NCBI GenBank assembly: GCA_963708025.1
Contig: CAVPSB010000031.1
Coordinates: 288,001-352,000 of the forward strand
Reading direction: 5' to 3'
Source: an uncultured Candidatus Rokubacteria bacterium
GTDB lineage: Bacteria; Methylomirabilota; Methylomirabilia; Rokubacteriales; DASRDR01
DNA length: 64,000 nt
How positions within the stretch are numbered: the first letter of the stretch is position 1; every line of letters begins with the position of its first letter. Positions 18,589 to 49,721 of the stretch are shown here, piece after piece. A program made the translations under genes and the position numbers. The notes beneath the pieces were generated by a model. The model had not been told where the DNA came from and searched no databases. It was given only the letters and a program-made list of their open reading frames with translations.

Positions 18589-19196
18589 GGGCCGACCGGC
18601 CGGTCGGGGCGGCGCGCAGTGACAACGAGGGTAAGTACCGCTCGTCGAATCCTGTCGTTCGACGGCTGGTGGCGCGGTTCCTGGAGTGCGTGGGCGATCT
18701 GGTCGAGGCTCAGCAGCCCCGCCGGATCCTCGAGGTCGGGTGCGGTGAAGGAATCGTCATCGAGTACCTGTCGGCGCGCGTGCCCGGCGCCCGTTTCGAG
18801 GGGATCGAGCTGGATCCCGGCGCCCTCGCCCGCGGCCGCGTCCGCTGTCCGGCGGCGGCCCTCCTGCAGGGCGACGCGTACGACCTACCCTTCGCGCGGA
18901 GCAGCTACGACCTCGTGCTCTGCCTCGAGGTGCTGGAACACCTCCGGGAGCCCGGCCGGGCCCTCCAGGAGATCCGGCGCGTCGCCCGGGCCGGGTGCCT
19001 GCTGAGCGTTCCCCATGAACCCTTCTTCCGGCTCGGTAACCTCTTCCGCGGCAAGAACCTCGGCCGCCTCGGAAACCCGACCGACCACGTCCAGCACTGG
19101 GGCGCCCGTGGCTTCGCCGCGTTCTGTGCCCGGGAGCTGGCCGTCCGGACCGCCACTCGCTCCTTCCCCTGGCTCATCGTCCACGGGACCGTCTGA
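18573..19196 (+). CDS. Class I SAM-dependent methyltransferase
   Basis: ILEVGCGEG, GDAYDLPF, YDLVLCLEVLEHL. Confidence 0.88.
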   Translation: MSAELRADRPVGAARSDNEGKYRSSNPVVRRLVARFLECVGDLVEAQQPRRILEVGCGEGIVIEYLSARVPGARFEGIELDPGALARGRVRCPAAALLQGDAYDLPFARSSYDLVLCLEVLEHLREPGRALQEIRRVARAGCLLSVPHEPFFRLGNLFRGKNLGRLGNPTDHVQHWGARGFAAFCARELAVRTATRSFPWLIVHGTV

Positions 19197-20919: not shown

Positions 20920-21095
20920 GGGGCGACGGTGGGCGCCGTCGGGATCGCGTCGCCGCCGGCGCACGCCTGAGGCCCACCTTTTAAGCGTCGGCGGCAGCGG
21001 CTGGCTCGGTTAGGATGCCGTGAAAACGGAGCGCGAGAGAGGCGACCAATGCGACACGAGTGCGAGAGCTACGTAGGGCGGCGGCGACGGACGCC

Positions 21096-23423: not shown

Positions 23424-23454
23424 TCGACCCGCGGGGGCCGGACCCGTCGGCGCG

Positions 23455-26431: not shown

Positions 26432-26539
26432 AGCCTGTGAAGCCATTCAGTTCCTCCGGCCCCCCTCCGGCGTCCGCTCGGGGAGCCGAATCCGAGCGTC
26501 GCGATCCCGGCGCCGGCCCGTCTGCTAGGGAGGATCCCC

Positions 26540-34150: not shown

Positions 34151-34690
34151 ATGAACGGTCTGCAAGGGCGAGCACGAGAAACGGATCACGGATCCATTCG
34201 GGCCGGGCGGCGGTCGATGGTGTCCCGGCTCCGGAGCCAGGACGGCGTCACGCTCGTCGAGATGTTCGTCATCGTGAGCATCATCGGGCTCCTGGCGGCG
34301 GCGACGCTGCCCCTGGTGGGCTCGGCGGTCGGCGACGCGCGGGTGCGGGGGGCGGCGGAGCAGGTGGGGAGCGCGGCGCGCCGGGCCCGGCAGGCGGCGC
34401 TGGCGGCGGCGACGACCTACCGGTTCACCCTGAACGGGACGACCGTCGCGCTGGCCTGCATCGTGGACACCCCGCCGGGCAACGTCTGCCCGGCGAACCG
34501 GGTGCCCGACTACACCGAGCCGATGTCCGGGGATGTCGCGATCTCGCCGGTCCCCCTCACGCTGACCTTCGACGCGACCGGCGGCGCCTCGCCGGCCACG
34601 TTCACGATCAGCCACGGCAGCTCCCCCAACTATCAGGTGGCGGTCAACGCCGCCGGGAGGGTCCGGGTATGCACGCCCAGCTGCCCGTAA
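34151..34690 (+). CDS. FimT/FimU-like minor pilin (alternative start 34217)
   Basis: GAGGAGGAGG SD; RSQDG|VTLVEM; AARRARQAA; TFDATG; VNAAGRVR. Confidence 0.82.
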   Translation: MNGLQGRARETDHGSIRAGRRSMVSRLRSQDGVTLVEMFVIVSIIGLLAAATLPLVGSAVGDARVRGAAEQVGSAARRARQAALAAATTYRFTLNGTTVALACIVDTPPGNVCPANRVPDYTEPMSGDVAISPVPLTLTFDATGGASPATFTISHGSSPNYQVAVNAAGRVRVCTPSCP

Positions 34691-35112
34691 CGCTGCGCTC
34701 GAACGCCGGCGTCTCCCTGATCGAGGTCATGGTCTCGCTGCTGCTCCTGTCCGTCGCGATCGCCGGGCTGGCGGTGGGCTTTCCGATCAGCCGGACCGCG
34801 GTGACGACGAGCAGCCAGATCAGCGCCGCCATCAGCCTGGCGCGCCAGACCCTGGAGGACATGCGTAACCGGGAGTACAGCTCGACGATAGACCAGATCA
34901 CGACGGCGAACTTCCCGAATCAGGGATACGGCGGCATCCCGAACTTCCCCCGGCACCGGCGCAGCATCTCCATCCAGGACGGGGTGCCGGTGGCCATCTG
35001 CGTGCCGCCCCCGGGCTCGCCGTGCATGAAGACGGTGACCGTCACCGTCTTCTACCGGGACGACAAGGGGCTGGAGCGCGGGATTCCCCTCACGAGCATC
35101 TTCGTCCGATGA
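34669..35112 (+). CDS. PilV-like minor pilin
   Basis: RSNAG|VSLIEVMVSLLLL; LARQTLE; KTVTVTV. Confidence 0.8.
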   Translation: MHAQLPVTLRSNAGVSLIEVMVSLLLLSVAIAGLAVGFPISRTAVTTSSQISAAISLARQTLEDMRNREYSSTIDQITTANFPNQGYGGIPNFPRHRRSISIQDGVPVAICVPPPGSPCMKTVTVTVFYRDDKGLERGIPLTSIFVR

Positions 35113-35129
35113 CGGGGGAGGGCCATCTC

Positions 35130-35831
35130 ATGACCGGCACACTCAGACAGGAACGCGGCGTCACCCTCGTGGAGCTGATGGTCAGCCTGGCCCTGACGGC
35201 CTTGCTGGCGGTCGGGGTGCTGACCATCTGGGGACAGACCCAGCAGGCGTACCTGGACGGCGCCGAGGCGTCCGACGCGCAGCAGCGGGTCCGGATCGCG
35301 ATGGACCAGATCGTCCGCACGATCCAAATGGCAGGCGCGAACCCGCGCAACCAGATCTACGCGGGCCCGGTGACGAACGATCCGGCCTTCACGGCGTTCC
35401 GGGCAGCCGGCGCGAACTGCATGCGTCTCTACTCCGACCTGAACGGGGACGGCAACGTCCAGGGGGTCCAGGAGAACGTGAGCTTCGACTGGGTCGGCGT
35501 CGGATCCCCGATCACCCAGGAGCTGGGCGGCGGCCCCGACCTGGGCCAGCCGTGGGTCGCGGCCAGCCTCGGCATCCAGGAGCTATCGCTCGACATCGTC
35601 GCCAATCCGGGCGGCACCCCGATGTTCCAGTACTTCACGGGGCCCAACGCCGCGCTGCCGAATAGCCCGATTCCCGTCGTGGCAACCCCGGTGTGTGCCA
35701 ATGCCATGACCAACCCCAACCGGACGACCATCGGCCGGGTGCTGATCACGATTACCGCGCGGGGAACGGTCGGGAGCCAGACTTTCACCCGGACCCTCGT
35801 GTCCGAGGCCCGGCCTCGGAACGTGCCTTGA
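35130..35831 (+). CDS. PilW-like minor pilin
   Basis: RQERG|VTLVELMVSL; AQQRVRIAMDQI..IQMAG; C-terminal RPRN. Confidence 0.85.
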   Translation: MTGTLRQERGVTLVELMVSLALTALLAVGVLTIWGQTQQAYLDGAEASDAQQRVRIAMDQIVRTIQMAGANPRNQIYAGPVTNDPAFTAFRAAGANCMRLYSDLNGDGNVQGVQENVSFDWVGVGSPITQELGGGPDLGQPWVAASLGIQELSLDIVANPGGTPMFQYFTGPNAALPNSPIPVVATPVCANAMTNPNRTTIGRVLITITARGTVGSQTFTRTLVSEARPRNVP

Positions 35832-35844
35832 GAGGAGGCCCGTC

Positions 35845-37959
35845 ATGAAACCCGACGTCATTCCGCTCGGCGCGCCGCTCCACAACCAGCGCGGCGCCAC
35901 CCTGTTCGCGGCGATCCTCGCGCTCCTGCTGCTCAGCACGATGACCGTCGCCTTCACCCTGGTCGCGCGGGACGAGGCCTTCATCGGCCAGAACACGCGG
36001 GAGGCGGTGCAGGCGGAGTTCTCCGCCGAAGGCGGGGCGAGCCACGGGCGCTGGCTGCTCGCCCAGCGCCTCCGGGTCGACCTCCCCCGGGAGGTGGCCA
36101 ACACCCTCCGCACCACGATGATCAACGACCTCCAGACCCGCTACAACACCTCGGGGGGCGCCGCGCTGTTCCTTCTGGAGAAGGCGATTCCCCAGGGCGT
36201 CGGCCCGACGTTCTCGCTCTGCTCCACCTCCGGCGGCTGTCTGGATCCCGTCTACAGCCCGGTCGGGGAGATCCCGGACGCCCAGCAGGTGGTCATGACC
36301 GTCAACAGCACCAATCCGGCCTACACGGGCCGGATCATCGTCGGGGTGCCGCCGGGGGCGCCTCCGGTGATCACGAACGGGGGCACCGGCGCCATCTTCA
36401 ACTTCATGTGGCGGGTCGACAGCACGGGCACCGCCGGCCGGTCCACTCAGCTCATCAGCCACGACTCGGTCATCGCGACCTTGCCGGGCGGGACGTTCAC
36501 CATCGCCCTGAACTCGAACTTCGTCCAGTACGCCCACTTCATCGACCAGATGGACGACACCCAGGCGTGGATCAGCTTCCGGCACATCTACACCGGGCCC
36601 GTCCACACCAACACCCGCTTCAACATCCTGGGCAACCCGACCGGGCCCACGTTCCGGAGCGAGGCGACCCAGACGCTCAACACCACGCGCTTCAACAACA
36701 GCGGCTCGGCGACGACCGTGTCCAAGGACAGCACGGCCAACGACTGGCCGCTCCTGGGGCCGACGCCGGGGGTTCTCTGCAAGTCGGTCGACTGCACCGG
36801 CTTCACCCGGAACTACGACTTCGACCCGTCCACCCCGGCCGTCGATCCGATCCCGTTCCCGGGCGGGCCCAACCCGCCCGATCGGACGGCCGAGATCAAC
36901 CTGGCCAAGGGCCCGAACTACGTCGCCGGTCTTCCGGTCTGGGTGGCCAATGACGGGGGCCTCGCGGCGGCCGGCACCCTGAATGGCGGCATCTACATCA
37001 TCGGCGGCGTCGTGGACCTGCGGCTCGACGCCACCGCCACCGGGCAGCACATCCTCATCCAAACCGACGCCAACCACCGCACCGACATCCTGGAGAATCG
37101 GCCGCTCAACCAGACGATCGTGACCCGCCAGTGCCGGAAGACGATTAACACTGCGGTGGCCCCGTGCGTGAACGGCCAGCCCAACTGGAACATTGACGTC
37201 AACCTCGTCCCGGCGACCGCGCAGGTCCAGACCTTGACCGGCAAGTTCACCCCGGACTTCGGGACGCCGCCACCGAACAACGTCGACTTGGGCGTTATCT
37301 TCGTCGAGGGCGCGATCGGCCAGGCCGGCGCCTCTCTGAACGGGCTTCGCCAGACCCCTGGTCCCGCGAGTACTGCCGCGATCTACCAGGACCCCCTGAA
37401 CCCCAACGCCGGCTCCCGGATCACGATCGCGGCCAACGGCAACATCTTCATCACCGGGCACCTGCGGTACCAGACGGACTCGCGCGGCCTGGACGGGGTC
37501 TACGGCTCCCCGGTGGGCAGCGGCGACGACCAGCTCCTGGTCCAGAACGTCCTCGGCGTCGTCTCCTGGGGCGGAGGCATCCGCCTGGCGAGCGGGCTGA
37601 ATCAGGTCGTCCTGGCTGCGAACTACCCAGCCGTGCCCGGAACCGACCTGATTCTCCAAGGCATGTTCATGGCGCCCAACATCGCGAACGCCGCCGAGCC
37701 GATCGGCCAGATCAGCTTCGACGACCCCAACGGGGCGTATCGCGGCTTCGCCAAGCTACTGGGCGGCGTCGTCCAGAAGACGATGGGGACCTTCGGCTCG
37801 CCGGGCACCCCGGGGACCGGGTACGCGCGGGACTGGGTCTACGACGAGCGCTTCCGCCAGAATGGCCTGGCGCCGCCGCTGTTCCCCGGGTTCCCCAAGT
37901 TCACCGCGAGCACCTCGCTGGGCATCGACGACTACACCTGGCGGATGGGGAGGTTCTGA
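35845..37959 (+). CDS. Large PilX-like minor pilin/putative tip protein (704 aa, DUF4900-like C-terminus)
   Basis: HNQRG|ATLFA (no E5), AEFSAEGG, GPVHTN, GYARDWVYDERF..PPLFP. Confidence 0.8.
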   Translation: MKPDVIPLGAPLHNQRGATLFAAILALLLLSTMTVAFTLVARDEAFIGQNTREAVQAEFSAEGGASHGRWLLAQRLRVDLPREVANTLRTTMINDLQTRYNTSGGAALFLLEKAIPQGVGPTFSLCSTSGGCLDPVYSPVGEIPDAQQVVMTVNSTNPAYTGRIIVGVPPGAPPVITNGGTGAIFNFMWRVDSTGTAGRSTQLISHDSVIATLPGGTFTIALNSNFVQYAHFIDQMDDTQAWISFRHIYTGPVHTNTRFNILGNPTGPTFRSEATQTLNTTRFNNSGSATTVSKDSTANDWPLLGPTPGVLCKSVDCTGFTRNYDFDPSTPAVDPIPFPGGPNPPDRTAEINLAKGPNYVAGLPVWVANDGGLAAAGTLNGGIYIIGGVVDLRLDATATGQHILIQTDANHRTDILENRPLNQTIVTRQCRKTINTAVAPCVNGQPNWNIDVNLVPATAQVQTLTGKFTPDFGTPPPNNVDLGVIFVEGAIGQAGASLNGLRQTPGPASTAAIYQDPLNPNAGSRITIAANGNIFITGHLRYQTDSRGLDGVYGSPVGSGDDQLLVQNVLGVVSWGGGIRLASGLNQVVLAANYPAVPGTDLILQGMFMAPNIANAAEPIGQISFDDPNGAYRGFAKLLGGVVQKTMGTFGSPGTPGTGYARDWVYDERFRQNGLAPPLFPGFPKFTASTSLGIDDYTWRMGRF

Positions 37960-37960
37960 C

Positions 37961-38314
37961 ATGGCGAGCGAGCGCGGCGGTCGGGGCCCCACTCGCGGAA
38001 CGAGACCGACGAGACCGACGGGCAAGGCGGGGCCGGGATCGGCCCCGCCGGCCCGGCGACGATGGCGGCCGTCGGCGCTGGAAGCCGTCGTGCTGCTGGT
38101 CCTCCTGCTGGTCGGCCTGAATTTCCTCTCTTCGCGCTCGGCGCCGGATGCCTCCGCGCCGGGCCCGGTGGCCTCCGTGGCGACGGAGGCGGCGTCGCCT
38201 CCTCCACCCCCGGCGGAAGAGCCGGTCGAGATCGAGCCGACGTCGAGCTTCCCGTCCCTGCAGTCCGTCGGCGGCGTCCTCCGAACGCAGAACGGCGCCG
38301 CGTTCAACGACTGA
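37961..38314 (+). CDS. Small single-TM hypothetical protein
   Basis: GGGAGG SD; basic N-terminus, one TM, Pro/Ala-rich linker. Confidence 0.6.
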   Translation: MASERGGRGPTRGTRPTRPTGKAGPGSAPPARRRWRPSALEAVVLLVLLLVGLNFLSSRSAPDASAPGPVASVATEAASPPPPPAEEPVEIEPTSSFPSLQSVGGVLRTQNGAAFND

Positions 38315-38323
38315 GACCCTGGG

Positions 38324-38358
38324 AGCGGGTCGGGGTGGCGGAGCCACCCCGACCCGCT
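38324..38358 (+). terminator. Perfect 16-bp hairpin closing minor-pilin cassette 1 (no U-tract)
   Basis: AGCGGGTCGGGGTGGC-GGA-GCCACCCCGACCCGCT. Confidence 0.6.
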
Positions 38359-38511
38359 GGCCGAAGCACCCGGGAGTGAGGGCGGTCACCTGACCGCCGC
38401 CCGCGAGACGGCCTTCCTTCCCCCTTCCCGACCAGCGTTCGCGACCTGCCGCCCACCCCCCGGTCCCCCGGGCTCAGCGTCCCCCGTCCCCCGCCCGGCC
38501 CGGCCCTGACA

Positions 38512-38527
38512 GGGCGCCGATCTTGCA
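38512..38527 (+). promoter_or_regulatory. sigma54 promoter of minor-pilin cassette 2
   Basis: GGGCGCCGATCTTGCA (GG-N10-GC). Confidence 0.6.
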
Positions 38528-38731
38528 CCCCTCCGCGGCGAGATGAACGTCGTGGAGGTCGGGGGCATGAGCCGTTCACCCCTCGGGAGCGTGCGCGGAA
38601 GGCGGCAGGGAGCGCGTTTTCGGCTGGCCGGCGCGGGCCGGGGATCGGGCCGACGGGTGCGTCGAGGAGTGACGGGGTGTGACCATTCCGATGCGGGGCG
38701 GCGGCCAGGCGCCGGTACCGGCGGGCGGGCC

Positions 38732-39112
38732 ATGAGCCACCTCGACGGGCGCGGCGCCACCCTGGTCGAGCTGCTGGTCGCCGTCATGCTGCTGGCGATC
38801 GCGCTGACCGGCCTGGCCGGATCCTACCCCCTCGCGATGCAAGCGGTCACGAGTGGAGGCCACCGGACCACCGCGACGCTGCTGGCGCAGCAGTGCATCG
38901 AGCTGGCGAAGAGCACACCCTACGATCGCCTCCCGATCGACCTGGCCCCGAGCTGTTCGGTCCACCCCGCCGGGTATGCGGCCTTCACCCGCACGCTCAC
39001 CGTGGCGCCGGGACGACCGACCGGGACGACGACGACCGTCACCGTCGAGGTCGGCTACCGGAACGGGCCGGGGGCGAACCGGGCCACCGTGGCCACCATC
39101 CTGTCGCAGTGA
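38732..39112 (+). CDS. PilV-like minor pilin, cassette 2
   Basis: MSHLDGRG|ATLVELLVAVMLL; LAQQCIE; TVTVEVGY. Confidence 0.8.
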   Translation: MSHLDGRGATLVELLVAVMLLAIALTGLAGSYPLAMQAVTSGGHRTTATLLAQQCIELAKSTPYDRLPIDLAPSCSVHPAGYAAFTRTLTVAPGRPTGTTTTVTVEVGYRNGPGANRATVATILSQ

Positions 39113-39120
39113 GGGGTGTC

Positions 39121-39909
39121 GTGCGGCCCGGATTCGGCGATCCTGTCGGCGATGCGCGCGGCGTCACCCTGGCGGAGCTGGCGGTGACTCTCGGGTTGCT
39201 GGGGTTGATCATGGCCGGGGTCGTGACGACCTGGTCGACGGCTCAGGAAGCGTACTTCGTGGGGTCGGAGGCCGCCGAGGTTCAGCAGAACATCCGGGCG
39301 GCGATGGACTTCATGGTCCGCGAGCTGCGGGCGACGGGCCGGGATGTCACCGTGTGCGCCTTCGACTACGCCGGCGCCGCCAGCCGGGACTGCACGGCGG
39401 CCAAGGCGTCCCGGTGTCAGGCGAAGCTCGGCGGCGGGTACGTGAGCTGCTCGAACGTCTTCGCCATCCCGTTCGCCGGCGCGCGGGCCACCGGGCTCCA
39501 GATCCGTTCCGACCGGAATGACAGCGGCACGATCGCCGGCACCCCCGGCGCCGGCGCGAGTGACGCCGCCGAAGAGGACGTCGTCTACGCCCTCGCCCAC
39601 GGCGCGCCCCCCTGCCCGGCGGGAGTGACCGCCTGCGTCACCCGGGACGATGGCCAGGGGTCGGTGGCGATGGTGGCGGTCGACATTCAGGGGCTCTCGT
39701 TCACCTACTACCCACGGCCGGGCTATCCGCCCTGCGACGCGGTGCCCTCCTCGGCCCCGTGCCCGCCCTTCACCCTGCCGCTGGTGAGTCAGTCCCAGGC
39801 CGACAACGTCGGGCGGATCCGGATCAGCCTCACGTCACAGACGGTGATCGGCGGTCGGCCGATCACCCGACGATTGGAGACGGACGTCCACCTGAAGAAC
39901 CGGGGATAG
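39121..39909 (+). CDS. PilW-like minor pilin, cassette 2 (Cys-rich)
   Basis: DARG|VTLAELAV; VQQNIRAAMDFMVRELRATG; C-terminal VHLKN; 8 Cys. Confidence 0.82.
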   Translation: MRPGFGDPVGDARGVTLAELAVTLGLLGLIMAGVVTTWSTAQEAYFVGSEAAEVQQNIRAAMDFMVRELRATGRDVTVCAFDYAGAASRDCTAAKASRCQAKLGGGYVSCSNVFAIPFAGARATGLQIRSDRNDSGTIAGTPGAGASDAAEEDVVYALAHGAPPCPAGVTACVTRDDGQGSVAMVAVDIQGLSFTYYPRPGYPPCDAVPSSAPCPPFTLPLVSQSQADNVGRIRISLTSQTVIGGRPITRRLETDVHLKNRG

Positions 39910-39923
39910 CCACGGAGGCGGCG

Positions 39924-41627
39924 ATGCGGGCGACGGTGAGGAGCCAGCAGGGGTCGGCGGTCCTCCTGGCCGTGATGGCGATGCTGGTCATGGGAGTCCT
40001 GAGCGTCTCCTTCTGGCTCCTCGCCGACGTCGAGTCGCGGGCCGGCGTGAGCCACGAGCAGCTGGCGCAGGCCGAGGCGGCCGCCGACGCCGGGCTCGAG
40101 CACGGGGGGGACCTGGTCCGGGCCGCGGCGACGGCCAGTGGCGGGTTCACGGACTGGCTCAACGGCGTCAGGGCGACCCACATGCTGATCGCCGGGGGGA
40201 CCCTGAATGGCGCGACGTACTGGGCGCGGATCGACAACGACTGCCCACCGGCGGTCCCGAGCGCGATCCGGGAGGGCGCCGACCGGTCGCCGGCTCCGGT
40301 GTGCAACCGGGAGACCGACGCCAACGGCGTCGCCGTCATCACGGCGTGGGCGGTGGCGGGGGCCGGGCGCTCCCGCGCCCGCGTCATCGTCACGGTGGAC
40401 AGCCCCTGGCAGCACGTCTGCGCCCGCGCCCGGCCGGACGACGGCCCGCACTGCAACGAGCCGGGCGATGGGAACGGAACGCCCGCGGTGAGCCCGTCGG
40501 ACCCCAACGACCCGAACGGACCGCAGGGCTATGCCGATCTGCCCCGGCCCTACCTCGGCTGCTCCCGCGTCGCGGCAGGCCTCCACAAGGCGGCGGGCGT
40601 CACCGACGCGGAGCAGCACGCGAGGTGCTACCCGCCCCTCGGCGCCTGGCAAGGGGTGTACGCCTATCCCTACCCCACCGGCCCCGGCCCGCGGATGGTG
40701 ATGATGGGCGGGCTGCCGGGGCCGGCCGGGGGCTTCCCGAGGTCCTGCCACGACGAGCCCGCCGGTGGGAACGGCAACCGGTACTTCGGCCACTTCGACT
40801 GCGCCGTGACGACCTACTGCCGGCCGGCCGAGGGCGACGTCTGTCCGGCCGGCGCCACCCGGGTCGGCTGCCTGCGCGGGCCGCTGTTCGCCGCCCGGTT
40901 CGGTGGCCTGCCCGACACGCGGGTGGTTCCCGGCCATCCGAACCAGGTCGCTTCCAACAACCCGATCGGCACCCGGTGGGTGGAGTACGATCCGGCCGCC
41001 GGGACGTGCTCCGGCGGCCACACCGGTATGGTGTGGACGGGCCCCGCCACCTTCAACACCGATGTCGGGTCACCGACGAAGCAGCTCGACGTTTACGTCA
41101 TGGGCCACTGGGGCCAGGGAAGCAACCTGAAGTTCTACGGGACGCTGGCCGTGGAGGGCACGACCGCCGGCGGCCCGGTCTTCTCGGTCGGCAACGGCGC
41201 CACCGCCGAGCTCTGGTCCGGGCCGAGCACGGCGGCCGCTGCCGGCTGGGGGTTCAGCCGCACGTACGGGTACCCGCTCGTCGCGGTCGTCTACAACCCG
41301 GCGCTGCCTCCGCCGACCATCCAGCCGACCTACGGCCCGCAGCCCCTGACGGCCGACTTCGGGACCGGGACCCCCCGGATCCACGGCATCATCTACTCCG
41401 GCGGCCGCGTCCAGTTCGGACCGCTCACCCTCGACGGCAGCGTGGTGGCCTTCGAGATCCAGACCCGGGGCGGCGCGAGCTACACCTACAACGCCACGTA
41501 CGGCGACGACACGCCGCCATCGGGCTTCCCGCCCGGCGCCGGCAACCGGGTCTCCGTCATCCGGAAATCATTCGTGGCGTGCTCGGGCTACAACGACGAC
41601 AGCGGCGGGCCGACCCCCTGCAACTAG
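39924..41627 (+). CDS. Large Cys-rich PilX-like protein, cassette 2 (567 aa)
   Basis: GGAGG SD; RSQQG|SAVLL (no E5); AEAAADAGLE; about 14 Cys. Confidence 0.78.
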   Translation: MRATVRSQQGSAVLLAVMAMLVMGVLSVSFWLLADVESRAGVSHEQLAQAEAAADAGLEHGGDLVRAAATASGGFTDWLNGVRATHMLIAGGTLNGATYWARIDNDCPPAVPSAIREGADRSPAPVCNRETDANGVAVITAWAVAGAGRSRARVIVTVDSPWQHVCARARPDDGPHCNEPGDGNGTPAVSPSDPNDPNGPQGYADLPRPYLGCSRVAAGLHKAAGVTDAEQHARCYPPLGAWQGVYAYPYPTGPGPRMVMMGGLPGPAGGFPRSCHDEPAGGNGNRYFGHFDCAVTTYCRPAEGDVCPAGATRVGCLRGPLFAARFGGLPDTRVVPGHPNQVASNNPIGTRWVEYDPAAGTCSGGHTGMVWTGPATFNTDVGSPTKQLDVYVMGHWGQGSNLKFYGTLAVEGTTAGGPVFSVGNGATAELWSGPSTAAAAGWGFSRTYGYPLVAVVYNPALPPPTIQPTYGPQPLTADFGTGTPRIHGIIYSGGRVQFGPLTLDGSVVAFEIQTRGGASYTYNATYGDDTPPSGFPPGAGNRVSVIRKSFVACSGYNDDSGGPTPCN

Positions 41628-41870
41628 TCGGCGGGGCCGGTGAGCGTCGCAACGCTCCGCCTGGTCGTGACGCGCTCGGCCTACGGCCCCGCCCCCGGGA
41701 AGGACGCATCTGCCATGAGTTTAGCCCTTCGAGGCTCCTCGGTCGTTCCGGACGGGGCCGCGCCGTCCCCGGGGGGCGAGGGGGCTGGCTCCGATCCTCG
41801 CCCGTCTTTCCCTTGGGGTCGGGTCCGGGCCCTCCTGGGAAGACCCTCTCTTCCCGGCGGGTGGGCTGCG

Positions 41871-41876
41871 TATAAT
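41871..41876 (+). promoter_or_regulatory. Perfect -10 box, probably near-leaderless promoter of the repeat kinase
   Basis: TATAAT 8 nt before ATG 41885. Confidence 0.6.
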
Positions 41877-41884
41877 AGGGGGCC

Positions 41885-44557
41885 ATGGCGTCGCCGTCTG
41901 CCGACACCACCGTTCGGCTGGGGCTGGTCGGGACCGGAGCGGAACTGGTCAAGGCCATCGAGGCCCTCAAGGGCATTTCGACCATCGAGATCGCCGTCGT
42001 CGCCGACGCCAGCGATCGCTCGGAGGGCGCCAAGCTCGCGCACAGCCTCAAGCTTCCCCTCGTGAAGAACGCGATGGAGGTCTTCCGCTCCAAGGCCAAC
42101 ATCGTCCTCGAGGTGAACGGGGACGAGCGCCAGTACGAGCGTCTGCTCTCCATCAAGCCGCCCGGCACCGAGGTCATGAGCGTCAAGGGCGCTCGCCTCC
42201 TGATCAACCTCCTCAAGCAGAGCGGCAGCGGCAACGCGGGGGCCGAGGCGCCGGCCCGGGAAATCATCAAGGAGGTCCCGGTCGAGGTCATCAAGGAAGT
42301 CGTCCGGGAAATCGTGAAGGAGGTCCCGGTCGAGGTCCCGGTCGAGGTCGTCCGGGAGGTGGTGAGAGAGGTCCCGGTGGAGGTCATCCGGGAGGTGGTG
42401 AGAGAGGTCCCGGTGGAGGTCGTCCGGGAGGTGGTGAGAGAGGTCCCGGTCGAAGTCATCCGGGAGGTCGTGCAGGAGGTTCCAGTCGAGGTCATCCGGG
42501 AGGTGGTGAAAGAGGTCCCGGTGGAGGTCGTCCGGGAGGTGGTGAAAGAGGTCCCGGTCGAAGTCATCCGGGAGGTCGTGCAGGAGGTTCCGGTCGAAGT
42601 CATCCGGGAGGTGGTGAGAGAGGTCCCGGTGGAGGTCGTCCGGGAGGTCGTCAAGGAGATCCCGATCGAGGTGATCAAGGAGGTCGTCCGGGAAGTACCC
42701 CTGGAGGTGATCCGCGAGGTCGTCAAGGAAGTGCCGAGAGAAGTGATCAGGGAGATCATCCGGGAAGTCCCGGTCGAGGTGATCAAAGAGATCATCCGGG
42801 AAGTTCCGGTCGAGGTCCCGGTCGAGGTCCCGGTCGAGATCGTGCGGGAAATCGAGGTCGTCAAAGAGGTCATCAAGGAAGTTCCGGTCGAGGTCATCAA
42901 GGAGGTCGTCCGGGAGGTTCCGGTCGAGGTTCCCGTCGAAGTCATTCGCCGGATGGACACCGTCAAGGTCGAAAAGGTCGAGGTGCCGGTCGAGGTCATC
43001 AAGGAAGTCGAGGTGATCAAGGAGATCATCAAGGAGGTGCCGGTCGAGGTCATCAAGGAGGTCGAGGTCATCAAGGAAGTCGTCCGGGAGATCCCGGTCG
43101 AGGTGATCAAGGAGGTCATCAAGGAGGTGCCGGTCGAGGTCATCAAGGAAGTCGAGGTGATCAAGGAGGTCATCAAGGAAGTTCCGGTCGAGGTGATCAA
43201 GGAAGTCGTCAAGGAAGTTCCGGTCGAGGTCATCAAGGAAGTCGTCCGGGAGGTCCCGGTCGAGGTGATCAAGGAGGTCATCAAGGAAGTCCCCTTCGAG
43301 GTCGTCAAGGAAGTGGTCAAGGAGGTCCCCGTCGAGGTGGTTCGGGAGATGACCCACGTCGACGAAGAGGAGATGCAGCGGCTCCGACGGCGCCTGGAAG
43401 AGCTGCAGACCCAGTACGATCAGCTCGCCACGATGTCCGGGCGGGTGCCGGTGGACGAGAAGATGCAAGCGCTGGTCACCATGGCCAGCGGCGTCGGCCA
43501 CATCTTCAACAACGTACTGGCCGGGATCCTGGGGCGGACCCAGCTTCTCCTGAAGAAGGCCGAGCGGGAAAAGGCCAAGGACCTGGTGGCGGGGCTCAAC
43601 GAGATCGAGTCGGCGACCCGAACCGGCATCGACGCCCTGACCCGGATCCAGGAGTTCAGCCGGGCTCGGCCATCGGAGGCGCTCGCGCGAGTCGACCTCA
43701 ATGACGTCGTGCAGCGAGCGATCGAGCAGACCCGGCCCAAGTGGCGCGACGAGCCGGCCACCAAGGGCGTGCGGATCGAGCTGATCACGCACTTCGGCGC
43801 CCACGCCCCGGTCCTGGGCGTCGAGAGCGAGTTGCTCGAAGCCCTCACCCAGCTCATCGTCAACGCCGTAGACGCCATGCCCCGCGGCGGTATCATCACC
43901 GTTCGCACCGGGAACGAGCCGGGCCGGGGCTTCATGGCGGTGTCGGACACCGGCACCGGCATGGCGGAGAATATCAAGAGCCGCGCCCTGGAGCCGTTCT
44001 TCTCGACCAAGGGCGAGACGGGCCTGGGCCTGGGGCTCTCGGTGGTGTACGGGATCATGGTGCGCCACGGGGGCGACGCCGTGATCGAGAGCGAAGCCGG
44101 CAAGGGGACGACCCTGACGCTTCGCCTCCCGACGGCCGGCGAGGGAGCTCCGACGCCGCTGACGGCCGCCGAGGCCGACCAAGCCCAGGTGCTCGTCGTC
44201 GACGACGACGAGACGGTGCGGACCGCTCTGGGGGACATGCTGCGCGGCGCCGGCTACGCGGTGACCCTGGCGGCTTCCGGTCTCGAAGGCATCGCCAAGG
44301 TCCGGGAGCGCGAGGGGCCGTTCCACCTCGTCGTGACCGACCTCGGCATGCCGGACGTGCCCGGCTGGGAAGTCGTGGAGGCGGTGAAGCAGATCGAGAC
44401 CGCGACACCGGTCGTCATCATGTCGGGCTTCGACCGCGCCCGCGCCACACGTCGCGCCAAGGAGCTGGGCGTCGATCTCGTCATCTCCAAGCCGTTCGAC
44501 CTGCAGGACTTCCTGAACGCGGTTCGCGGCCTGCTGCTGGGTCGGAAGCGCACCTGA
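41885..44557 (+). CDS. Soluble hybrid histidine kinase: Rossmann-like N-domain, about 360-aa VPVE repeat, coiled coil, HisKA-HATPase, REC
   Basis: GHIFNN H-box, QLIVNAVDAM, DTGTGM, PFFSTKG, GLGLGL, VLVVDDD..TDLGMP..KPF. Confidence 0.9.
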   Translation: MASPSADTTVRLGLVGTGAELVKAIEALKGISTIEIAVVADASDRSEGAKLAHSLKLPLVKNAMEVFRSKANIVLEVNGDERQYERLLSIKPPGTEVMSVKGARLLINLLKQSGSGNAGAEAPAREIIKEVPVEVIKEVVREIVKEVPVEVPVEVVREVVREVPVEVIREVVREVPVEVVREVVREVPVEVIREVVQEVPVEVIREVVKEVPVEVVREVVKEVPVEVIREVVQEVPVEVIREVVREVPVEVVREVVKEIPIEVIKEVVREVPLEVIREVVKEVPREVIREIIREVPVEVIKEIIREVPVEVPVEVPVEIVREIEVVKEVIKEVPVEVIKEVVREVPVEVPVEVIRRMDTVKVEKVEVPVEVIKEVEVIKEIIKEVPVEVIKEVEVIKEVVREIPVEVIKEVIKEVPVEVIKEVEVIKEVIKEVPVEVIKEVVKEVPVEVIKEVVREVPVEVIKEVIKEVPFEVVKEVVKEVPVEVVREMTHVDEEEMQRLRRRLEELQTQYDQLATMSGRVPVDEKMQALVTMASGVGHIFNNVLAGILGRTQLLLKKAEREKAKDLVAGLNEIESATRTGIDALTRIQEFSRARPSEALARVDLNDVVQRAIEQTRPKWRDEPATKGVRIELITHFGAHAPVLGVESELLEALTQLIVNAVDAMPRGGIITVRTGNEPGRGFMAVSDTGTGMAENIKSRALEPFFSTKGETGLGLGLSVVYGIMVRHGGDAVIESEAGKGTTLTLRLPTAGEGAPTPLTAAEADQAQVLVVDDDETVRTALGDMLRGAGYAVTLAASGLEGIAKVREREGPFHLVVTDLGMPDVPGWEVVEAVKQIETATPVVIMSGFDRARATRRAKELGVDLVISKPFDLQDFLNAVRGLLLGRKRT
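42257..43348 (+). repeat. Coding tandem repeat, basic unit 36 bp (EVPVEVIREVVR), about 30 Pro-centred units
   Basis: Directly visible GAGGTCCCGGTCGAGGTCATCCGGGAGGTGGTG.. array with synonymous variation. Confidence 0.95.
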
Positions 44558-44707
44558 TTCTCCCGCAAGGGAGGCCTCGCCCCCCTCCGCGCCGCGCGCG
44601 CGGCACTCCGCAGCGGCAGAGCCCGCGCTCGAGACGCTGCGAACGCGATCCCGCGAGCGATCGGCCCCACCCGCCGCCTCCGAAACAGGGTCCGAGGTCC
44701 AATTTTC

Positions 44708-44737
44708 TTGACTCTCGGCCGACCACCGCCCTATACT
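44708..44737 (+). promoter_or_regulatory. sigma70 promoter of pilMNOPQ
   Basis: TTGACT-18 nt-TATACT. Confidence 0.65.
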
Positions 44738-44871: not shown

Positions 44872-45924
44872 ATGGCGTTGTTCAAGCGCAAGAAGCGACC
44901 GCAGGTGGTGGGACTCGACATCGGCTCGAGCTTCGTGAAAGCCGTCGAGTTGCGTCCGGTCGGAAACGACTACGAGCTGGTCGGGTTCGGGATGGGGCCG
45001 GTGCCGCCCGGGGCCATCGAGCAGAGCGAGATCAAGCAGCCCGCGGCCGTGCAGTCGGCGATCCGTCAGGCCCTCGAGCAGGGGCGCATCCAGGCGACCG
45101 ACGCCGCGATCAGCATGTCCGGCGGCTCCGTCATCGCCAAGCGGGTGACGCTGCCGAAGATGTCGGAGGCCGAGCTGGCCGAGTCCATCCGGTGGGAGGC
45201 CGAGCAGCACATCCCGTTCGACATCGAAGACGTGGAGCTCGACTTCCAGATACTGCGCCAGCAAGGTCCGCAGCTCGAGGTGATGCTGGTGGCCGTGAAG
45301 AAGGGCAAGGTCCAGAGCTACGTGGACGCGGTGGCGGAGGCCGGCCTCGGCGTGGTGATCGTGGACGTGGACGTGTTCGCCCTCGAGACCCAGTACGAGT
45401 ACAACTTCTCGGGTGACACGGAGGTCGTGGCCCTGGTCAACATCGGCCACGAGACGACCAACACGAACATCCTCCAGGGCGGCGTCAACGTCTATGCTCG
45501 CGACGTCTTCGTCGGCGGCAAGCAGTACTCTTCCACGATCGCTCAGCGCTTCGACCTGACCCCGTCCGACGCCGACGCCCTCGTCCGGGGGAAGCAGGGG
45601 GCGGTGAGCTGGGCCGAGATCGAGCCGGTGCTCGACCTCGTCTCCCAGGAGCTGGGGCAGGAGATCCAGCGCACGCTGGACTACTTCGGGACCACCGCCG
45701 AGCACGAGCGGATCCAGCGCATCTTCCTGTCGGGCGGCTGCGCGCTGATTCCGGGGCTCCAGGACTTCCTCTCGTCGCAGTGGGGAATCGAGGTCCAGCC
45801 GGCCGATCCCTTCAAGCGGGTCAAGCTGGGGCAGGGCCTCAACGCCGACGTGGTGCACAAGCTGGCCCCGCTGGCGGCCGTCGCGACGGGGCTGGCCATG
45901 CGCTATCCGGACGACCGGAAATAA
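44872..45924 (+). CDS. pilM: Type IV pilus assembly protein PilM
   Basis: VGLDIGSS, EAEQHIPF, VNIGHETT, GG, LSGGCA, ATGLAMR. Confidence 0.96.
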   Translation: MALFKRKKRPQVVGLDIGSSFVKAVELRPVGNDYELVGFGMGPVPPGAIEQSEIKQPAAVQSAIRQALEQGRIQATDAAISMSGGSVIAKRVTLPKMSEAELAESIRWEAEQHIPFDIEDVELDFQILRQQGPQLEVMLVAVKKGKVQSYVDAVAEAGLGVVIVDVDVFALETQYEYNFSGDTEVVALVNIGHETTNTNILQGGVNVYARDVFVGGKQYSSTIAQRFDLTPSDADALVRGKQGAVSWAEIEPVLDLVSQELGQEIQRTLDYFGTTAEHERIQRIFLSGGCALIPGLQDFLSSQWGIEVQPADPFKRVKLGQGLNADVVHKLAPLAAVATGLAMRYPDDRK

Positions 45925-45936
45925 GGACACCGAGCC

Positions 45937-46698
45937 GTGGCGATCAAAGTCAACGTCCTTCGTCGCGAAGGTTCGAAGAAGGGCGCGGGTCTCTCCAGCC
46001 TCCCCAGCGTGTCGATGCCGAAGGTGGCGATCGGCGGCGGGGGGCTGATGAAGGGGGCCGTCGCCCTCCTGGTCCTGGTGCTCCTGGCCCTGGGCTTCAT
46101 GGGCTGGCGGGCCCACGCCGAGAAGGTGGACAACGAGAGGAAGATCACCCAGCTCAAGGCCCAGGACGCCGACCTCCAGCGCCAGCTCGTCGAGCTACGG
46201 GTGGCCGAGGCGGCCAAGCGGGAGATCCAGCGGCGCCTGGACATCATCGGCCGCGTGGCCAAGAGCCAGAAGGTCCCGGTCGAGATGATGGCCGGCGTGC
46301 TGAAGTCGGTGCCGCAAGGCATCTGGCTCACGTCGCTGGACGTGAGGCCGCAGGAGGTGAAGGTCAAGGTGGAGGCCAACCGGCAGGCCATCACCTACTC
46401 CAGCGAGACGCTCAAGGCCCTCAACGACAAGCGGGAACAGGAGGAGGCGGCGGCGGCCGCGTCCCAGGCCAGCCCCCGCCCGGCGGCGCCGGTGGCCACC
46501 AAGGAAGTCACCGAGATCCACGGCTTCTCCGTGGTGATCAAGGGCATGGCCTTCAACAACTTCCAGGTGGCCGAGTTCATGGAGAACCTCAAGAAGATCG
46601 GCGTCTTCGCGGACGTGGACTTCACGGTGACCCAGGCCACGAACGTCGAGTCGGTCCGGGTCATGGACTTCGAAGTCACCGCCACCGTGAAGCTATAG
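45937..46698 (+). CDS. pilN: Type IV pilus assembly protein PilN
   Basis: IKVNVL PilM-binding N-terminus, TM, coiled coil, PQGIWLTSL, VAEFMENL. Confidence 0.9.
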   Translation: MAIKVNVLRREGSKKGAGLSSLPSVSMPKVAIGGGGLMKGAVALLVLVLLALGFMGWRAHAEKVDNERKITQLKAQDADLQRQLVELRVAEAAKREIQRRLDIIGRVAKSQKVPVEMMAGVLKSVPQGIWLTSLDVRPQEVKVKVEANRQAITYSSETLKALNDKREQEEAAAAASQASPRPAAPVATKEVTEIHGFSVVIKGMAFNNFQVAEFMENLKKIGVFADVDFTVTQATNVESVRVMDFEVTATVKL

Positions 46699-46708
46699 GC
46701 CAAGAGCC

Positions 46709-47353
46709 ATGGAACGAGCAGAGCTGAAGAACCTAGTCCTGATCGGGCTCCTGATTCTCGCCCTCGCCTACGTCGGGTGGAACGGCTTCACCGCCATGGG
46801 CTGGCGCGGTGTGGCCGCGTTCCGGGCCGACGCGGCCAAGTCAGTCGCTCAGCGAGAGAAGCTCGAGACCAGCGTCAAGAACGCCAAGGCCCAGGTCGCG
46901 AACCTCGACAAGATCAAGAAGGAACGGGAAGCGCTGGAGGTGCAGCTCAAGGAGATCACCCGACGGCTGCCGGGTGAGCGCGAGTCGGCCGAGGTGCTCC
47001 GGAGCGTCGAGAGCCTGGCCGGCCGGTCGGGGTTGACGCTGGCGGCGGTCCGGCGTCGAACGCCCCGCACCCAGGAGCTGTACGTCGAGCTGCCCATGGA
47101 GGTCGGACTGGGGGGCGGGTACCACGAGATGGTGCGCTTCGCCGACCAGCTCTCCCAGCTCGACCGGCTGGTGACGCTGAACGAGTTCCAGGTGAACCGC
47201 CCGATGGCCGCCACGGGCCAGCCGGCCACCGCGGCCGTCACGCCCGGCACGGTCAGGGCGCAGATGGTGGCCGTGGTCTTCCAGGCGCTGCCCGAGCCGA
47301 CGCTGACGCTCCCGGGAGTGCCGGCGACAGGCGCGGCGACCCCCGCCCGGTAA
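46709..47353 (+). CDS. pilO: Type IV pilus assembly protein PilO
   Basis: TM, coiled coil, LP, YVELP, GGYH..F..LDRLV. Confidence 0.9.
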   Translation: MERAELKNLVLIGLLILALAYVGWNGFTAMGWRGVAAFRADAAKSVAQREKLETSVKNAKAQVANLDKIKKEREALEVQLKEITRRLPGERESAEVLRSVESLAGRSGLTLAAVRRRTPRTQELYVELPMEVGLGGGYHEMVRFADQLSQLDRLVTLNEFQVNRPMAATGQPATAAVTPGTVRAQMVAVVFQALPEPTLTLPGVPATGAATPAR

Positions 47354-47366
47354 CCGGAGGTCCCTG

Positions 47367-47906
47367 ATGCGCAACGTCAACGCTGCCCGCGCGCTTCGCC
47401 GGATCGCCTGGCTGGCGCTGGCCGTCTGTCTGGCGATCCCGGCCACGCTGTTCGCCCAGGCCACCACGAAGCCGCCGACCTCGCTCCCGGTGCCCAAGGC
47501 CGTCCCGAAGCCCGAGGTGCCGGAGATCGCCCGGCCGCTCCAGCCGGCCCCGTCATCGGCGCCGGCCCCGGCCCCGCCGGCCCCCGCCAGCCCGGCGCCG
47601 GCAGCGGGTCAGACGGACGGCCGCGATCCGTTCACACCCCTCATCACCAAGGCGCCGGAGGGCGAGAACCGGCCGTCGCTGTCCGGCCTCCGACTGGTCG
47701 GCGTGATGTGGGATCCAGTGCGGCGCGATCAGGTCCGGGCCCTCGTCGAGACCCCGGACGGGCTGGGCTACTACGTCCGCCTCAACGAAGAAAAGTTCGG
47801 CGGAAGGGTCGTCGCAATCGAGCGGGACCGCGTGCGGTTCTCCGTCCGCGAGCAGGACCCGACCGGGCAGGCCCGGGTGCGGACGGTCGAGCTGAAACTA
47901 AACTAG
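47367..47906 (+). CDS. pilP: PilP-like protein
   Basis: GRDPF, LRLVGVMW, ALVETPDG; lies between pilO and pilQ. Confidence 0.8.
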   Translation: MRNVNAARALRRIAWLALAVCLAIPATLFAQATTKPPTSLPVPKAVPKPEVPEIARPLQPAPSSAPAPAPPAPASPAPAAGQTDGRDPFTPLITKAPEGENRPSLSGLRLVGVMWDPVRRDQVRALVETPDGLGYYVRLNEEKFGGRVVAIERDRVRFSVREQDPTGQARVRTVELKLN

Positions 47907-49721
47907 GTGGAATCCATAGGCAGAGGGAGGAGCGGCGTGGCTAGACGAGGAGTTGTGATGCTCCTGGGCTGTGCCTGGACCCTGGCGGTGGCGGTCCCCG
48001 CGTGGGCGGCCGATCGTCCCACCGACCAGCCCATCCTGGTGGCGCAGGCGAGGGTGCCGGTTCTCGCGCAGACGGCGACGCAACCGCCGCGACAGCAGCC
48101 GCGCCTCATCTCGCTCGACTTCAAGGATGCCGACATCAACAACATCCTGCGCATCCTGGCGGAGTTCAGCGGTCTGAACATCGTGTCGAGCGACGACGTC
48201 AAGGGCAAGGTGACGGTGAAGCTCCAGAACGTCCCCTGGCAGCAGGCCCTCGACTCCGTCGTGCGGGCGGCGAAGCTCGGCTACGTGCAGGAAGGCAACA
48301 TCATCCGCGTCAACAAGCTGGAGAACCTGACCAAGGAGGCCGAGGCCCAGTTCAAGGCCGAGCAGCGCGAGGTCGAGATCCAGCAGCGGCGCAAGGAGGC
48401 CGAGCTGCGCGTCGCGGCCCAGGAGGGCGAGAAGAAGCTGGCCGACCAGCGCCGCGACTTCGAGCTGGCGCCACTGGCCGAGGAGATCATCGCGCTGAAG
48501 TACGCGCACGTCGGCGTCCGCCGGGTCAACGTGCTCAACTTCCTGACCGACCAGGTCAGCTCCGAGGAGCGCCGGGGGGTCGAGGAAGCGATCACGGGCG
48601 GCGCCAAGAAGGAGCCGGGCAAGCCGGCCGGCCTGCTCTCCGCCCGCGGCGAGCTCACCGTCGACCAGCGGACCAACTCGGTCATCGTGCGGGACGTGGA
48701 GGGGAACGTCCAGCGGATCAAGGAGTTCATCGGCCGGCTCGACAAGGCGATCCCGGCCGTCCAGATCGAGGCGCGAATCGTCGAGATCACCAAGGACGAT
48801 GCCCGGCGGCTGGGGGTCGTGTGGGGCGGCGTCTTCACGCCTCGCGCGGGTCCCAATTCCCCGATCGCCGTCGTCGGTGGTGGCGCCGGTCCGCGGGCCG
48901 TCCGGGGTGGCGACGCGCCGCCAGCCATCCCGCCGTCGACCGCCGCCAACTTCCCTACGGCACCGGTCAACGCTCCGTTCACGAACGGCAACCTCTTCGG
49001 GCTGGCCTTCGGCTGGCTGGCGTCGAACCTGGCCCTGGACATCTCGCTGTCGGCCCTCGAGGGTGAGAACCGGGTGCGCATCCTCTCCACGCCCAGCCTG
49101 ATGACCCTGGAGAACGAGCCGGCGACCATCGCCAGTGGCCAGAAGATCCCGATCATCAGCGTCGTCGTCGTCGCCGGGGCGCCCCAGGCCTCCGTCACCT
49201 ACTCGGACGTGACGACGCGCCTCCAGGTGGTGCCCCGCGTGGCCGCCGAGGACGGGCGGCTCGTGCTGACCATCGCCGTGAAGCGCGACACGCTGCTCAA
49301 CACCATCACCGCGGCCGGCCTGACGGCGCCCGTCATCGGGACGCGGCAGACGATCACCCAGGTCCGGATCCCGGACGGGGGAACCGTCGTGCTGAGCGGT
49401 CTGCGGGAGGACAGCGCGACCGGGCGCACCGAGGGGCTGCCCTGGGTGAAGAACATCCCGGTCCTCGGCTGGCTCTTCAAGAACGAGCTGACGGACGCGA
49501 GCCGGACCGAGCTGATGGTGTTCCTGACCGCCAAGGTGGTGGAGAGCCCCGGGGAGGCCGCCGTCAGCCCCCAGGACCTGCCGGCCGCACCGGGCGCCCC
49601 CGCGCCCCCGGGCCGCACCGGCCAGGCGCCGGCCGCGCCGCTTCCCGCGGTGTCGTCGGCGGCTCCGGTCCCCGCCGCCGCCCGTCCGACTCCGGTCCAA
49701 GCGGAGGCCATGAGCCGATGA
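47907..49721 (+). CDS. pilQ: Type IV pilus secretin PilQ (start may be 47937)
   Basis: ISLDFKDADI, VPWQQALD, DQRTNS, QIEARIVE, IPVLGWLFK, ELMVFLT. Confidence 0.95.
   Translation: MESIGRGRSGVARRGVVMLLGCAWTLAVAVPAWAADRPTDQPILVAQARVPVLAQTATQPPRQQPRLISLDFKDADINNILRILAEFSGLNIVSSDDVKGKVTVKLQNVPWQQALDSVVRAAKLGYVQEGNIIRVNKLENLTKEAEAQFKAEQREVEIQQRRKEAELRVAAQEGEKKLADQRRDFELAPLAEEIIALKYAHVGVRRVNVLNFLTDQVSSEERRGVEEAITGGAKKEPGKPAGLLSARGELTVDQRTNSVIVRDVEGNVQRIKEFIGRLDKAIPAVQIEARIVEITKDDARRLGVVWGGVFTPRAGPNSPIAVVGGGAGPRAVRGGDAPPAIPPSTAANFPTAPVNAPFTNGNLFGLAFGWLASNLALDISLSALEGENRVRILSTPSLMTLENEPATIASGQKIPIISVVVVAGAPQASVTYSDVTTRLQVVPRVAAEDGRLVLTIAVKRDTLLNTITAAGLTAPVIGTRQTITQVRIPDGGTVVLSGLREDSATGRTEGLPWVKNIPVLGWLFKNELTDASRTELMVFLTAKVVESPGEAAVSPQDLPAAPGAPAPPGRTGQAPAAPLPAVSSAAPVPAAARPTPVQAEAMSR

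Follow-up and report, generated by a model that had tools for sequence, protein, structure and literature searches.

Histidine kinases normally pass a signal from the sensor to the dimerization and histidine phosphotransfer (DHp) domain through short rigid helical linkers. In titin PEVK a long low-complexity repeat region acts as a spring, and the FimV/HubP polar hubs, which are membrane-anchored and not kinases, carry acidic cytoplasmic repeats and organize pilus and polar machinery. Here we analyze a hybrid histidine kinase gene (P0001, 41885..44557, plus strand) in a 64,000-nt stretch of DNA (the window) from an uncultured Candidatus Rokubacteria bacterium. It lies within a type IV pilus locus and encodes a VPE repeat array of 360 residues between an N-terminal domain and the kinase core. 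This long acidic low-complexity region recalls those of FimV/HubP and titin PEVK, and its sequence resembles the repeats of articulins, plateins and alveolins. These proteins share 12-residue V/P-rich tandem units (PMC4303705, PMC2120578). Epiplastins have medial domains rich in V, E, I, K and P with acid/base dyads, and their articulin subclass has more than three VPV motifs (PMC6212826). Recombinant articulin p60 made filaments (PMC2120578). Modeled alveolin domains are disordered as monomers and form β-ribbons as pairs, and the alveolin consensus heptad is EKIVEVP (PMC12465100).

The uninterrupted frame encodes 890 residues comprising, in order, a Rossmann-like N-domain, the VPE array, a coiled coil, DHp, HATPase_c and receiver (REC) domains. 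Our preferred reading, to which we give a probability of roughly 55%, is an accessory pilus-locus hybrid kinase whose input is held away from a CckA-type core by a convergent, length-variable VPE spacer or tether, and which signals by relay from H539 to D819. The 20–367 residues of charged V/P/E repeat that separate input and core in this family do not fit the helical-linker scheme and suggest regulation by tethering, reach or clustering. A literature search on hybrid histidine kinases, pilM and repeats, and on Rokubacteria type IV pili (the latter by title), found no description of such a kinase; a preliminary description of this DNA had likewise known the architecture from no characterized kinase. 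In public records members of the family have generic names such as 'response regulator' or 'signal transduction histidine kinase'.

Domain architecture

The frame 41885..44557 has a third-position GC content (GC3) of 0.90 within surrounding DNA of 70% GC, which identifies it as the true coding frame. The minus strand also has an open reading frame of 881 residues (41681..44326), which we dismissed on GC3 comparison as a high-GC shadow frame. No membrane segment or signal peptide was found across the 890 residues: the top 19-residue Kyte-Doolittle mean was 1.42, and this maximum falls within a strand and helix of the Rossmann-like domain. Kyte-Doolittle, Pfam and NCBIfam results together bear out the earlier claim of a soluble hybrid kinase with this order of modules.

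The kinase core opens with a coiled-coil helix and DHp domain (residues 486–594, 43340..43666), which AlphaFold2 (AF2) draws as helices 486–517, 525–561 and 565–594. The Pfam HisKA match is weak (E 0.49); CckA-type NCBIfam models, including PRK13557, align over residues 523–887. The phospho-acceptor H539 sits in the H-box GVGHIFNNVL. HATPase_c follows (residues 646–750, 43820..44134; Pfam E 5e-19) with its N, G1, F and G2 boxes all found (NAVDA 660, DTGTGM 688, EPFFST 703, GLGLGLS 713), and then the receiver (residues 769–881, 44189..44527; Pfam E 8e-23) with DD774–775, the phospho-acceptor D819, S847 and K869. All catalytic residues of the core are intact. By its H-box, HATPase_c and REC the protein is a hybrid histidine kinase, and autophosphorylation and phosphotransfer are predicted. 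It shares with CckA and the HisKA 'HxFNN' hybrid kinases the histidine in a GHxFNNxL DHp box, HATPase_c and a C-terminal receiver. It scored only 139 bits against the CckA equivalog, however, for which the cut-off is 1000 bits, and unlike CckA-type kinases it has no PAS or transmembrane input domains, but a Rossmann-like input and the repeat between input and core.

The N-domain (residues 1–118, 41885..42238) was modeled by AF2 on a 40-row alignment with a mean predicted local distance difference test (pLDDT) of 90.6. Foldseek returned 18 PDB matches at E≤1e-3, of which those displayed are NAD(P)-binding enzymes (TMq 0.54–0.63). Acetaldehyde dehydrogenase 1nvm_D was best (E 1.6e-4, TMq 0.62), followed by Gfo/Idh/MocA enzymes, PYCR1 and biliverdin reductase. 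The Rossmann-like fold proposed for this domain is thus confirmed by its model. Sequence searches with the domain found no PDB match below E 0.04 and no significant Pfam match; the fold is recognized by structure, together with weak DapB_N, CoA_binding or GFO_IDH_MocA matches in 4 of 21 distant relatives. Its glycine loop (G16-T-G18-A-E-L21) is degenerate, reading G16-x-G18-x-x-L/M/V in all 27 aligned pilus-linked members, while the conserved D41 after strand 2 is retained; distant relatives keep the canonical GxGxxG. The decay of this loop makes nucleotide binding doubtful, and dinucleotide binding is on this sequence evidence an uncertain property of the family. From its model, the domain appears to be an input domain of Rossmann ancestry.

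A profile-free HMMER search of 1.84 billion representatives with the N-domain gave only 56 clusters at E≤1e-3. Close matches are orthologs; distant ones are 25–35% identical and belong to cytoplasmic signaling proteins in which the domain is N-terminal. Histidine kinases account for 15 of the 21 scanned, mostly with GAF or PAS plus a receiver, and GGDEF proteins for two. These uncharacterized sensor kinases and GGDEF proteins (P0146–P0181) share with our kinase a small N-domain followed by GAF/PAS and HisKA-HATPase-REC or by GGDEF. They differ in their canonical glycine loop, in having no VPE array, and in that the domain abuts GAF or DHp; in P0146 and P0161 it ends about 17 residues ahead of HisKA. 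Because some distant relatives place the N-domain straight before the kinase core, the array is an insertion into a sensor-kinase design. Most orthologs have a GAF domain after the N-domain, and the window kinase has none. One distant relative, a PilZ-Rossmann-like-HisKA-HATPase-REC protein (P0149), ties the input domain to cyclic di-GMP signaling elsewhere.

The VPE array (residues 130–489, 42272..43351) consists of 30 Pro-centered units with a net charge of -35. Its basic 12-mer is EVPVEV(I/V)(R/K)EVV(R/K); 19 units are of 12 residues, five of 18, four of 4 (EVPV) and one of 16, and the last is of 10. Together V (37%), E (25%), I (11%), P (8.4%), K (8.4%) and R (7.6%) account for 97% of its residues. 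Successive Glu residues lie four apart in 85 of 91 intervals, and self-identity peaks at lag 12 (0.63). These counts agree with the repeat as first reported, with about 30 Pro-centered units, a basic 12-mer, Glu at every fourth residue and a bias to E/V/I/K/R/P; indeed, the preliminary description of the sequence was right in each checkable detail. The array further contains 25 VPV motifs and 54 acid/base dyads (15 per 100 residues), with 48% V+I and a charged fraction of 0.41 in which charges are well mixed. It is the only array of its type in the 8.17-Mb genome.

At the DNA level, Tandem Repeats Finder gave periods of 36, 108 and 90 nt with 81–90% matches. The longest exact repeat is 50 nt, and at the 108-nt offset of a higher-order repeat the best 150-nt windows are 96.7% identical. 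Over the 171 pairs of the 19 twelve-residue units, synonymous divergence (dS) was 0.96 and nonsynonymous divergence (dN) 0.14 (dN/dS 0.145), values to be read in the light of non-independent pairs and of a GC3 bias that restricts synonymous choice. With dS near 0.96 and dN/dS near 0.15, the units appear old and their peptide pattern under selection, and since unit differences are mainly synonymous, recent or artifactual expansion of the array is disfavored. Units of the Arg type (CGG) occupy its first half and those of the Lys type (AAG/AAA) its second, a switch that points to two sub-arrays differing in age or origin. Across the array (42250–43450) GC skew climbs to +0.37, and GC content, elsewhere about 0.72, drops to 0.56.

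Conservation and array length at the pilus locus

As the preliminary description stated, the kinase gene lies between minor-pilin-type genes and pilMNOPQ. The latter (44872..49721, plus strand) were identified by Pfam (PilM_2 3e-72, PilN, PilO and Secretin; PilP weak). Of 31 related genomes, 15, with this one among them, encode an orthologous N-domain (E≤1e-42), and the relatives bear public names in Rokubacteria or Methylomirabilota. Fourteen loci were fetched from other genomes, and each has the kinase gene immediately before pilM, so the proposed check of pilM synteny found the linkage throughout. Five genomes of the same family are without the kinase, and four of these also gave no pilM match. 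The fifth, G012 (locus L035, G012:C1:56000-75900), has pilD, GGDEF, minor-pilin, 338/622-residue and pilMNOPQ genes in the usual order, with pilM following the 622-residue gene and the kinase cleanly missing from between them, a natural deletion. The kinase thus travels with the pilus machine, yet is dispensable for keeping it. To call it a candidate new system, as had been done, is too strong: it is one accessory gene, a relative has the entire pilus locus without it, and arrays of 20–50 residues occur among orthologs. The gene has a fixed place next to pilMNOPQ in a soil phylum that is uncultured and abundant worldwide, and may bear on the motility and surface behavior of that phylum.

A TATAAT -10 box (41871..41876, plus strand) lies 8 nt 5' of the kinase ATG and probably serves as promoter for an mRNA with little or no leader. 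It has no -35 partner, and a two-hexamer scan therefore did not list the site. In 11 of 13 orthologous loci with upstream sequence (among L020–L032) an exact TATAAT stands 7–10 nt before the kinase start. Its conservation at the same spot in very GC-rich DNA argues that the gene has its own promoter, as had been noted for the window, and since a box so close to the start leaves no room for a Shine-Dalgarno sequence, a leaderless mRNA conserved in the group is suggested.

Recording repeat number in relatives, a check that had been proposed, revealed an array that is present but variable in length. It ranged from 20 to 367 residues across 39 family sequences (L020, L031 and L032 left out because they failed the motif filter; L025 and L026, with truncated frames, giving lower bounds), and that of the window is the longest. 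Close relatives whose N-domains are 86–91% identical have arrays of 133–223 residues, against 367 here. Given this range, even among close relatives, a fixed array structure seems unnecessary. Unit flavors differ between lineages: three proteins of one clade have 5–7 PVDRE units each, and the window protein has none.

An assembly artifact or a decaying gene was also considered. Three of the 14 loci from relatives have a kinase frame interrupted within the array, by frameshifts at different places in L025 and L026 and by a run of N in L032; the higher-order repeat is highly similar, and the genome bin has 8% contamination. Against this, the window gene has 890 open codons with high GC3 and intact catalytic residues, its exact repeats are short, differences between units are mostly synonymous, and arrays of 125–280 residues recur in many independent assemblies. 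We regard artifact or decay as extremely improbable. The three breaks probably stem from faulty assembly or sequencing of the repeat, and array lengths taken from assemblies need read support because of them.

The phospho-acceptor position is His in 23 and Gln in 4 of 27 aligned family members. Gln was seen in five sequences (P0007, P0009, P0027, P0028 and the L030 frame), some of which are possibly one protein. This subclade has short arrays (about 35 residues) and a GAF domain, and in P0027 the receiver Asp is also replaced, by Asn. Such proteins are possible pseudokinases by sequence. L030, the only Gln variant with locus context, still lies upstream of pilM.

The Rossmann fold, its degenerate glycine loop, the G012 deletion, the His-to-Gln subclade and the conserved leaderless-type promoter are new here, as are the synonymous divergence of array units and the 12-residue spacing common to unrelated bacterial proteins described below.

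Relation of the array to articulins and to unrelated repeats

The likeness to articulins and alveolins that the preliminary description had drawn holds for composition, VPV motifs and the 12-residue period, and fails for family membership. Tandem 12-residue periodicity, a mark of alveolins (PMC4303705), is seen in the 12-mers that make up 19 of the 30 units, and the 25 VPV motifs far exceed the more than three that define articulins (PMC6212826). With these proteins the array also shares the V/E/I/K/P bias, dyads in register and non-repetitive head and tail flanks. Set against the articulin consensus VPVP--V-V-V-, the unit agrees at V1, P2, V3 and V9, four of the seven positions that the consensus defines; in all 19 12-mers P4 is replaced by E, and V7 and V11 by R/K. 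The sub-period is four residues (E-V-x-x) rather than the alternating V-x-V of articulins. Epiplastins have a medial domain predicted as β-strand/random coil; AF2 draws the array as short helices at low confidence (pLDDT 27–69). In contrast to epiplastins, the head here is a sensor domain and the tail a kinase, and the host is a bacterium that builds no epiplast.

The profile comparison that had been proposed gave no support for homology. The alveolin family model IMCp (PF12314) had no match at E≤1 in the whole protein; with the limit raised to E≤10 it also had none in the array alone, in four whole orthologs or in the genome translated in six frames. The EKIVEVP heptad, of a type that had been named as characteristic of articulins and alveolins, occurs in the array neither exactly nor with one substitution; eleven instances have two. 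Nearest ESM Atlas clusters to the array (0.80–0.84) were haptophyte and ciliate hypotheticals, with an IMCp cluster at rank 6 (0.80). These scores lie below the level that shuffled sequences also reach, and the result is a lead only. Searching the literature by array peptide strings returned a 1995 articulin paper as the sole biological match.

An articulin-type role was nevertheless weighed, in which arrays of neighboring dimers pair into β-ribbons and form a lattice or cluster at the pilus base, with kinase or pseudokinase as part of the scaffold. VPV number, unit length, dyad density and V+I content are features that define articulins and epiplastins (PMC2120578, PMC6212826), and filaments of p60 (PMC2120578) and modeled ribbons of paired alveolin domains (PMC12465100) provide precedents. 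The pil position of the His-to-Gln subclade and purifying selection on the peptide pattern speak for it as well. However, IMCp failed in all three tests, some orthologs have only 20–50 residues of array, AF2 gives short helices rather than strands (again at low confidence), and arrays of the same type separate the modules of a PTS permease, of an OmpA protein and of an adhesin anchored in the wall, where filaments are unlikely. We consider self-assembly unlikely. Complex prediction with three copies of residues 174–305 scored 0.00 with partner fold uncertain, and counts neither for nor against self-association. The boldest form of the articulin-type reading, a bacterial counterpart of articulins and alveolins that pairs into β-ribbons to build a cytoplasmic lattice at the pilus base and is a skeleton element first and a kinase second, strikes us as quite unlikely. 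If true, the His-less subclade at pilM would be a scaffold-only form, and unrelated 12-mer proteins would point to widespread, unrecognized prokaryotic 'epiplastin-like' assemblies.

These unrelated proteins were found by a word-seeded search with the array, which gave 281 matches. Among the best 120 of the 281, 30 carry HATPase_c and REC and belong to this kinase family, and 90 have other domains or none: PTS_EIIC_2 (9), DnaJ (6), collagen-binding adhesins (6), CarboxypepD_reg (5), Mcp5_PH (4), and PadR, OmpA, SBP_bac_5 and CAP-Gly (3 each). Hosts of the unrelated proteins include Clostridia, Bacilli, mycoplasmas, Patescibacteria, dinoflagellates, haptophytes, gregarines and fungi. In all eight unrelated sequences read, other modules stand on both sides of the array: for example, it separates a DNA-binding domain from a membrane region, the domains of an adhesin from the LPXTG anchor, or a receiver-like domain from a ParA-type ATPase. 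Prolines are most often 12 residues apart in 4 of 6 unrelated proteins measured (P0029, P0030, P0040 and P0105); in P0070 spacings of 12 and 10 tie. Near-identical KEVPVEVIKEV units are shared with PadR-transmembrane protein P0029, PTS EIIC P0040, Cna-type LPXTG adhesin P0070, OmpA protein P0090 and receiver-like/ParA-type ATPase P0105. These proteins differ in flanking domains and compartments; they include no kinase, and no link to pili is known for any of them.

Since the same array type occurs in so many unrelated bacterial and eukaryotic proteins, convergent low complexity is a simpler account than homology. The array is, judging by these comparisons, most likely a convergent low-complexity module and not an alveolin homolog, and the simplest account would be one favored low-complexity unit that evolved repeatedly as an inter-module segment. 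The bacterial VPE 12-mer offers a tractable entry to the conformation of articulin/alveolin-type repeats and to the repeated selection of a 12-residue unit. Arrays of the KEVPVEVIKEV type (P0029, P0030, P0040, P0070, P0090 and P0105) form a class of repeats that is widespread in bacteria and, it seems, hardly described. Caulobacter 'articulins' are mentioned in one source (PMC6212826).

A titin PEVK-like behavior of the array was also considered. As an elastic, disordered entropic spring that joins the core to an anchored N-domain, it could render the kinase sensitive to mechanical load. Its composition of nearly all P, E, V, K/R and I, its well-mixed charges and its lack of a confident fold suit such a spring, and a titin-like protein (P0076, E 8e-14) is among the array matches. 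Yet neither end of the protein has a known anchor, no physical link joins the kinase to the pilus motor, and some orthologs are nearly without array. A load sensor is, on this balance, very unlikely.

Proposed mechanism and neighboring genes

In the tethered-kinase reading, the Rossmann-derived N-domain (with GAF in most orthologs) would be the input module and would sense a ligand. The VPE array would hold this module apart from the dimeric kinase core as a length-variable spacer or tether. Autophosphorylation at H539 would be followed by transfer to the protein's own receiver at D819, and from there to an unlinked Hpt domain or response regulator. Units would be gained and lost rapidly, with array length changing accordingly, under selection that maintains the peptide pattern. 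The output would be regulation of the type IV pilus locus in Rokubacteria/Methylomirabilota. We infer the spacer or tether role, ligand sensing and pilus regulation; the analysis itself shows the domain architecture, the N-domain fold, the catalytic residues, the synteny with pil genes, and the variability and recurrence of the array.

Several points weigh against this reading. First, strong purifying selection on the 12-mer and its recurrence in unrelated proteins argue that the array adopts a particular conformation or binds something; such constraint is not expected of a featureless linker. Second, AF2 draws 8-residue helices and 4-residue turns over residues 190–300 (pLDDT 55–69). This may reflect a folded α-solenoid rod, acting either as a rigid ruler between N-domain and core or as a long binding surface for pilus proteins. 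On the array alone Pfam reported MgtE_N (PF03448; 63 bits against a cut-off of 25.9, E 3.6e-17) over four low-complexity stretches, and designed armadillo proteins also match (4rv1, E 3e-11; another, E 7e-6), as does a leucine-rich repeat variant (E 0.39). Together with the AF2 helices and the conserved unit length of 12, these matches hint at a solenoid.

Other observations speak against a rod. The full-protein AF2 model, built on a 27-row alignment, has a mean pLDDT of 60.5 and shows no confident fold in the array, with values of 27–69 and below 50 over about half of it. Armadillo-type matches are to low-complexity periodic sequence with an alignment accuracy of 0.37. The MgtE_N assignment was rejected as a match to periodic, composition-biased sequence; Pfam found no CBS or MgtE membrane domain in this protein. 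Moreover, 48% β-branched residues would be unusual in helices, and an 18-fold range of array length among orthologs does not fit a fixed ruler. A solenoid is doubtful in our view.

Phosphotransfer, too, may not be the conserved function, because the His-to-Gln subclade keeps the pilM position; together with the purifying selection on the unit, this keeps a scaffold reading alive. Finally, the analysis identified no partner, ligand or output of the kinase, and gene position is the only pointer to pilus regulation. The seven Hpt matches found genome-wide include none on this contig. A GGDEF protein encoded after pilD was rejected as cognate partner: it has a hydrophobic N-terminus and no receiver domain.

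The window as a whole covers a large type IV pilus region. It opens with pilB, pilT, pilC, pilS, pilR, two pilin genes and a glycosyltransferase block, and continues with pilD, the GGDEF gene, prepilin-type and family-less genes, the kinase, pilM/N/O/P/Q and aroB. Upstream of the kinase, a cassette (34151..41627, plus strand) encodes prepilin-type N_methyl proteins and large family-less proteins of 704, 338 and 622 residues, of which the 338- and 622-residue proteins are kept upstream of the kinase in relatives. Downstream, a consensus scan alone placed a terminator-like hairpin (44688–44700) and a promoter-like site for pilM, TTGACT-18-TATACT (44708–44737), between the kinase and pilM (44688..44737, plus strand). 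The GGDEF gene (32775–33785) lies directly 3' of pilD and encodes a protein with a hydrophobic N-terminal half; nine relatives' loci extend to this position and eight of them keep the gene there, as does L035. Between the pilin genes and pilD (19015–28012), PMT_2-type glycosyltransferase, spermine-synthase-like, GT2 and family-less genes may form a pilin glycosylation cassette.

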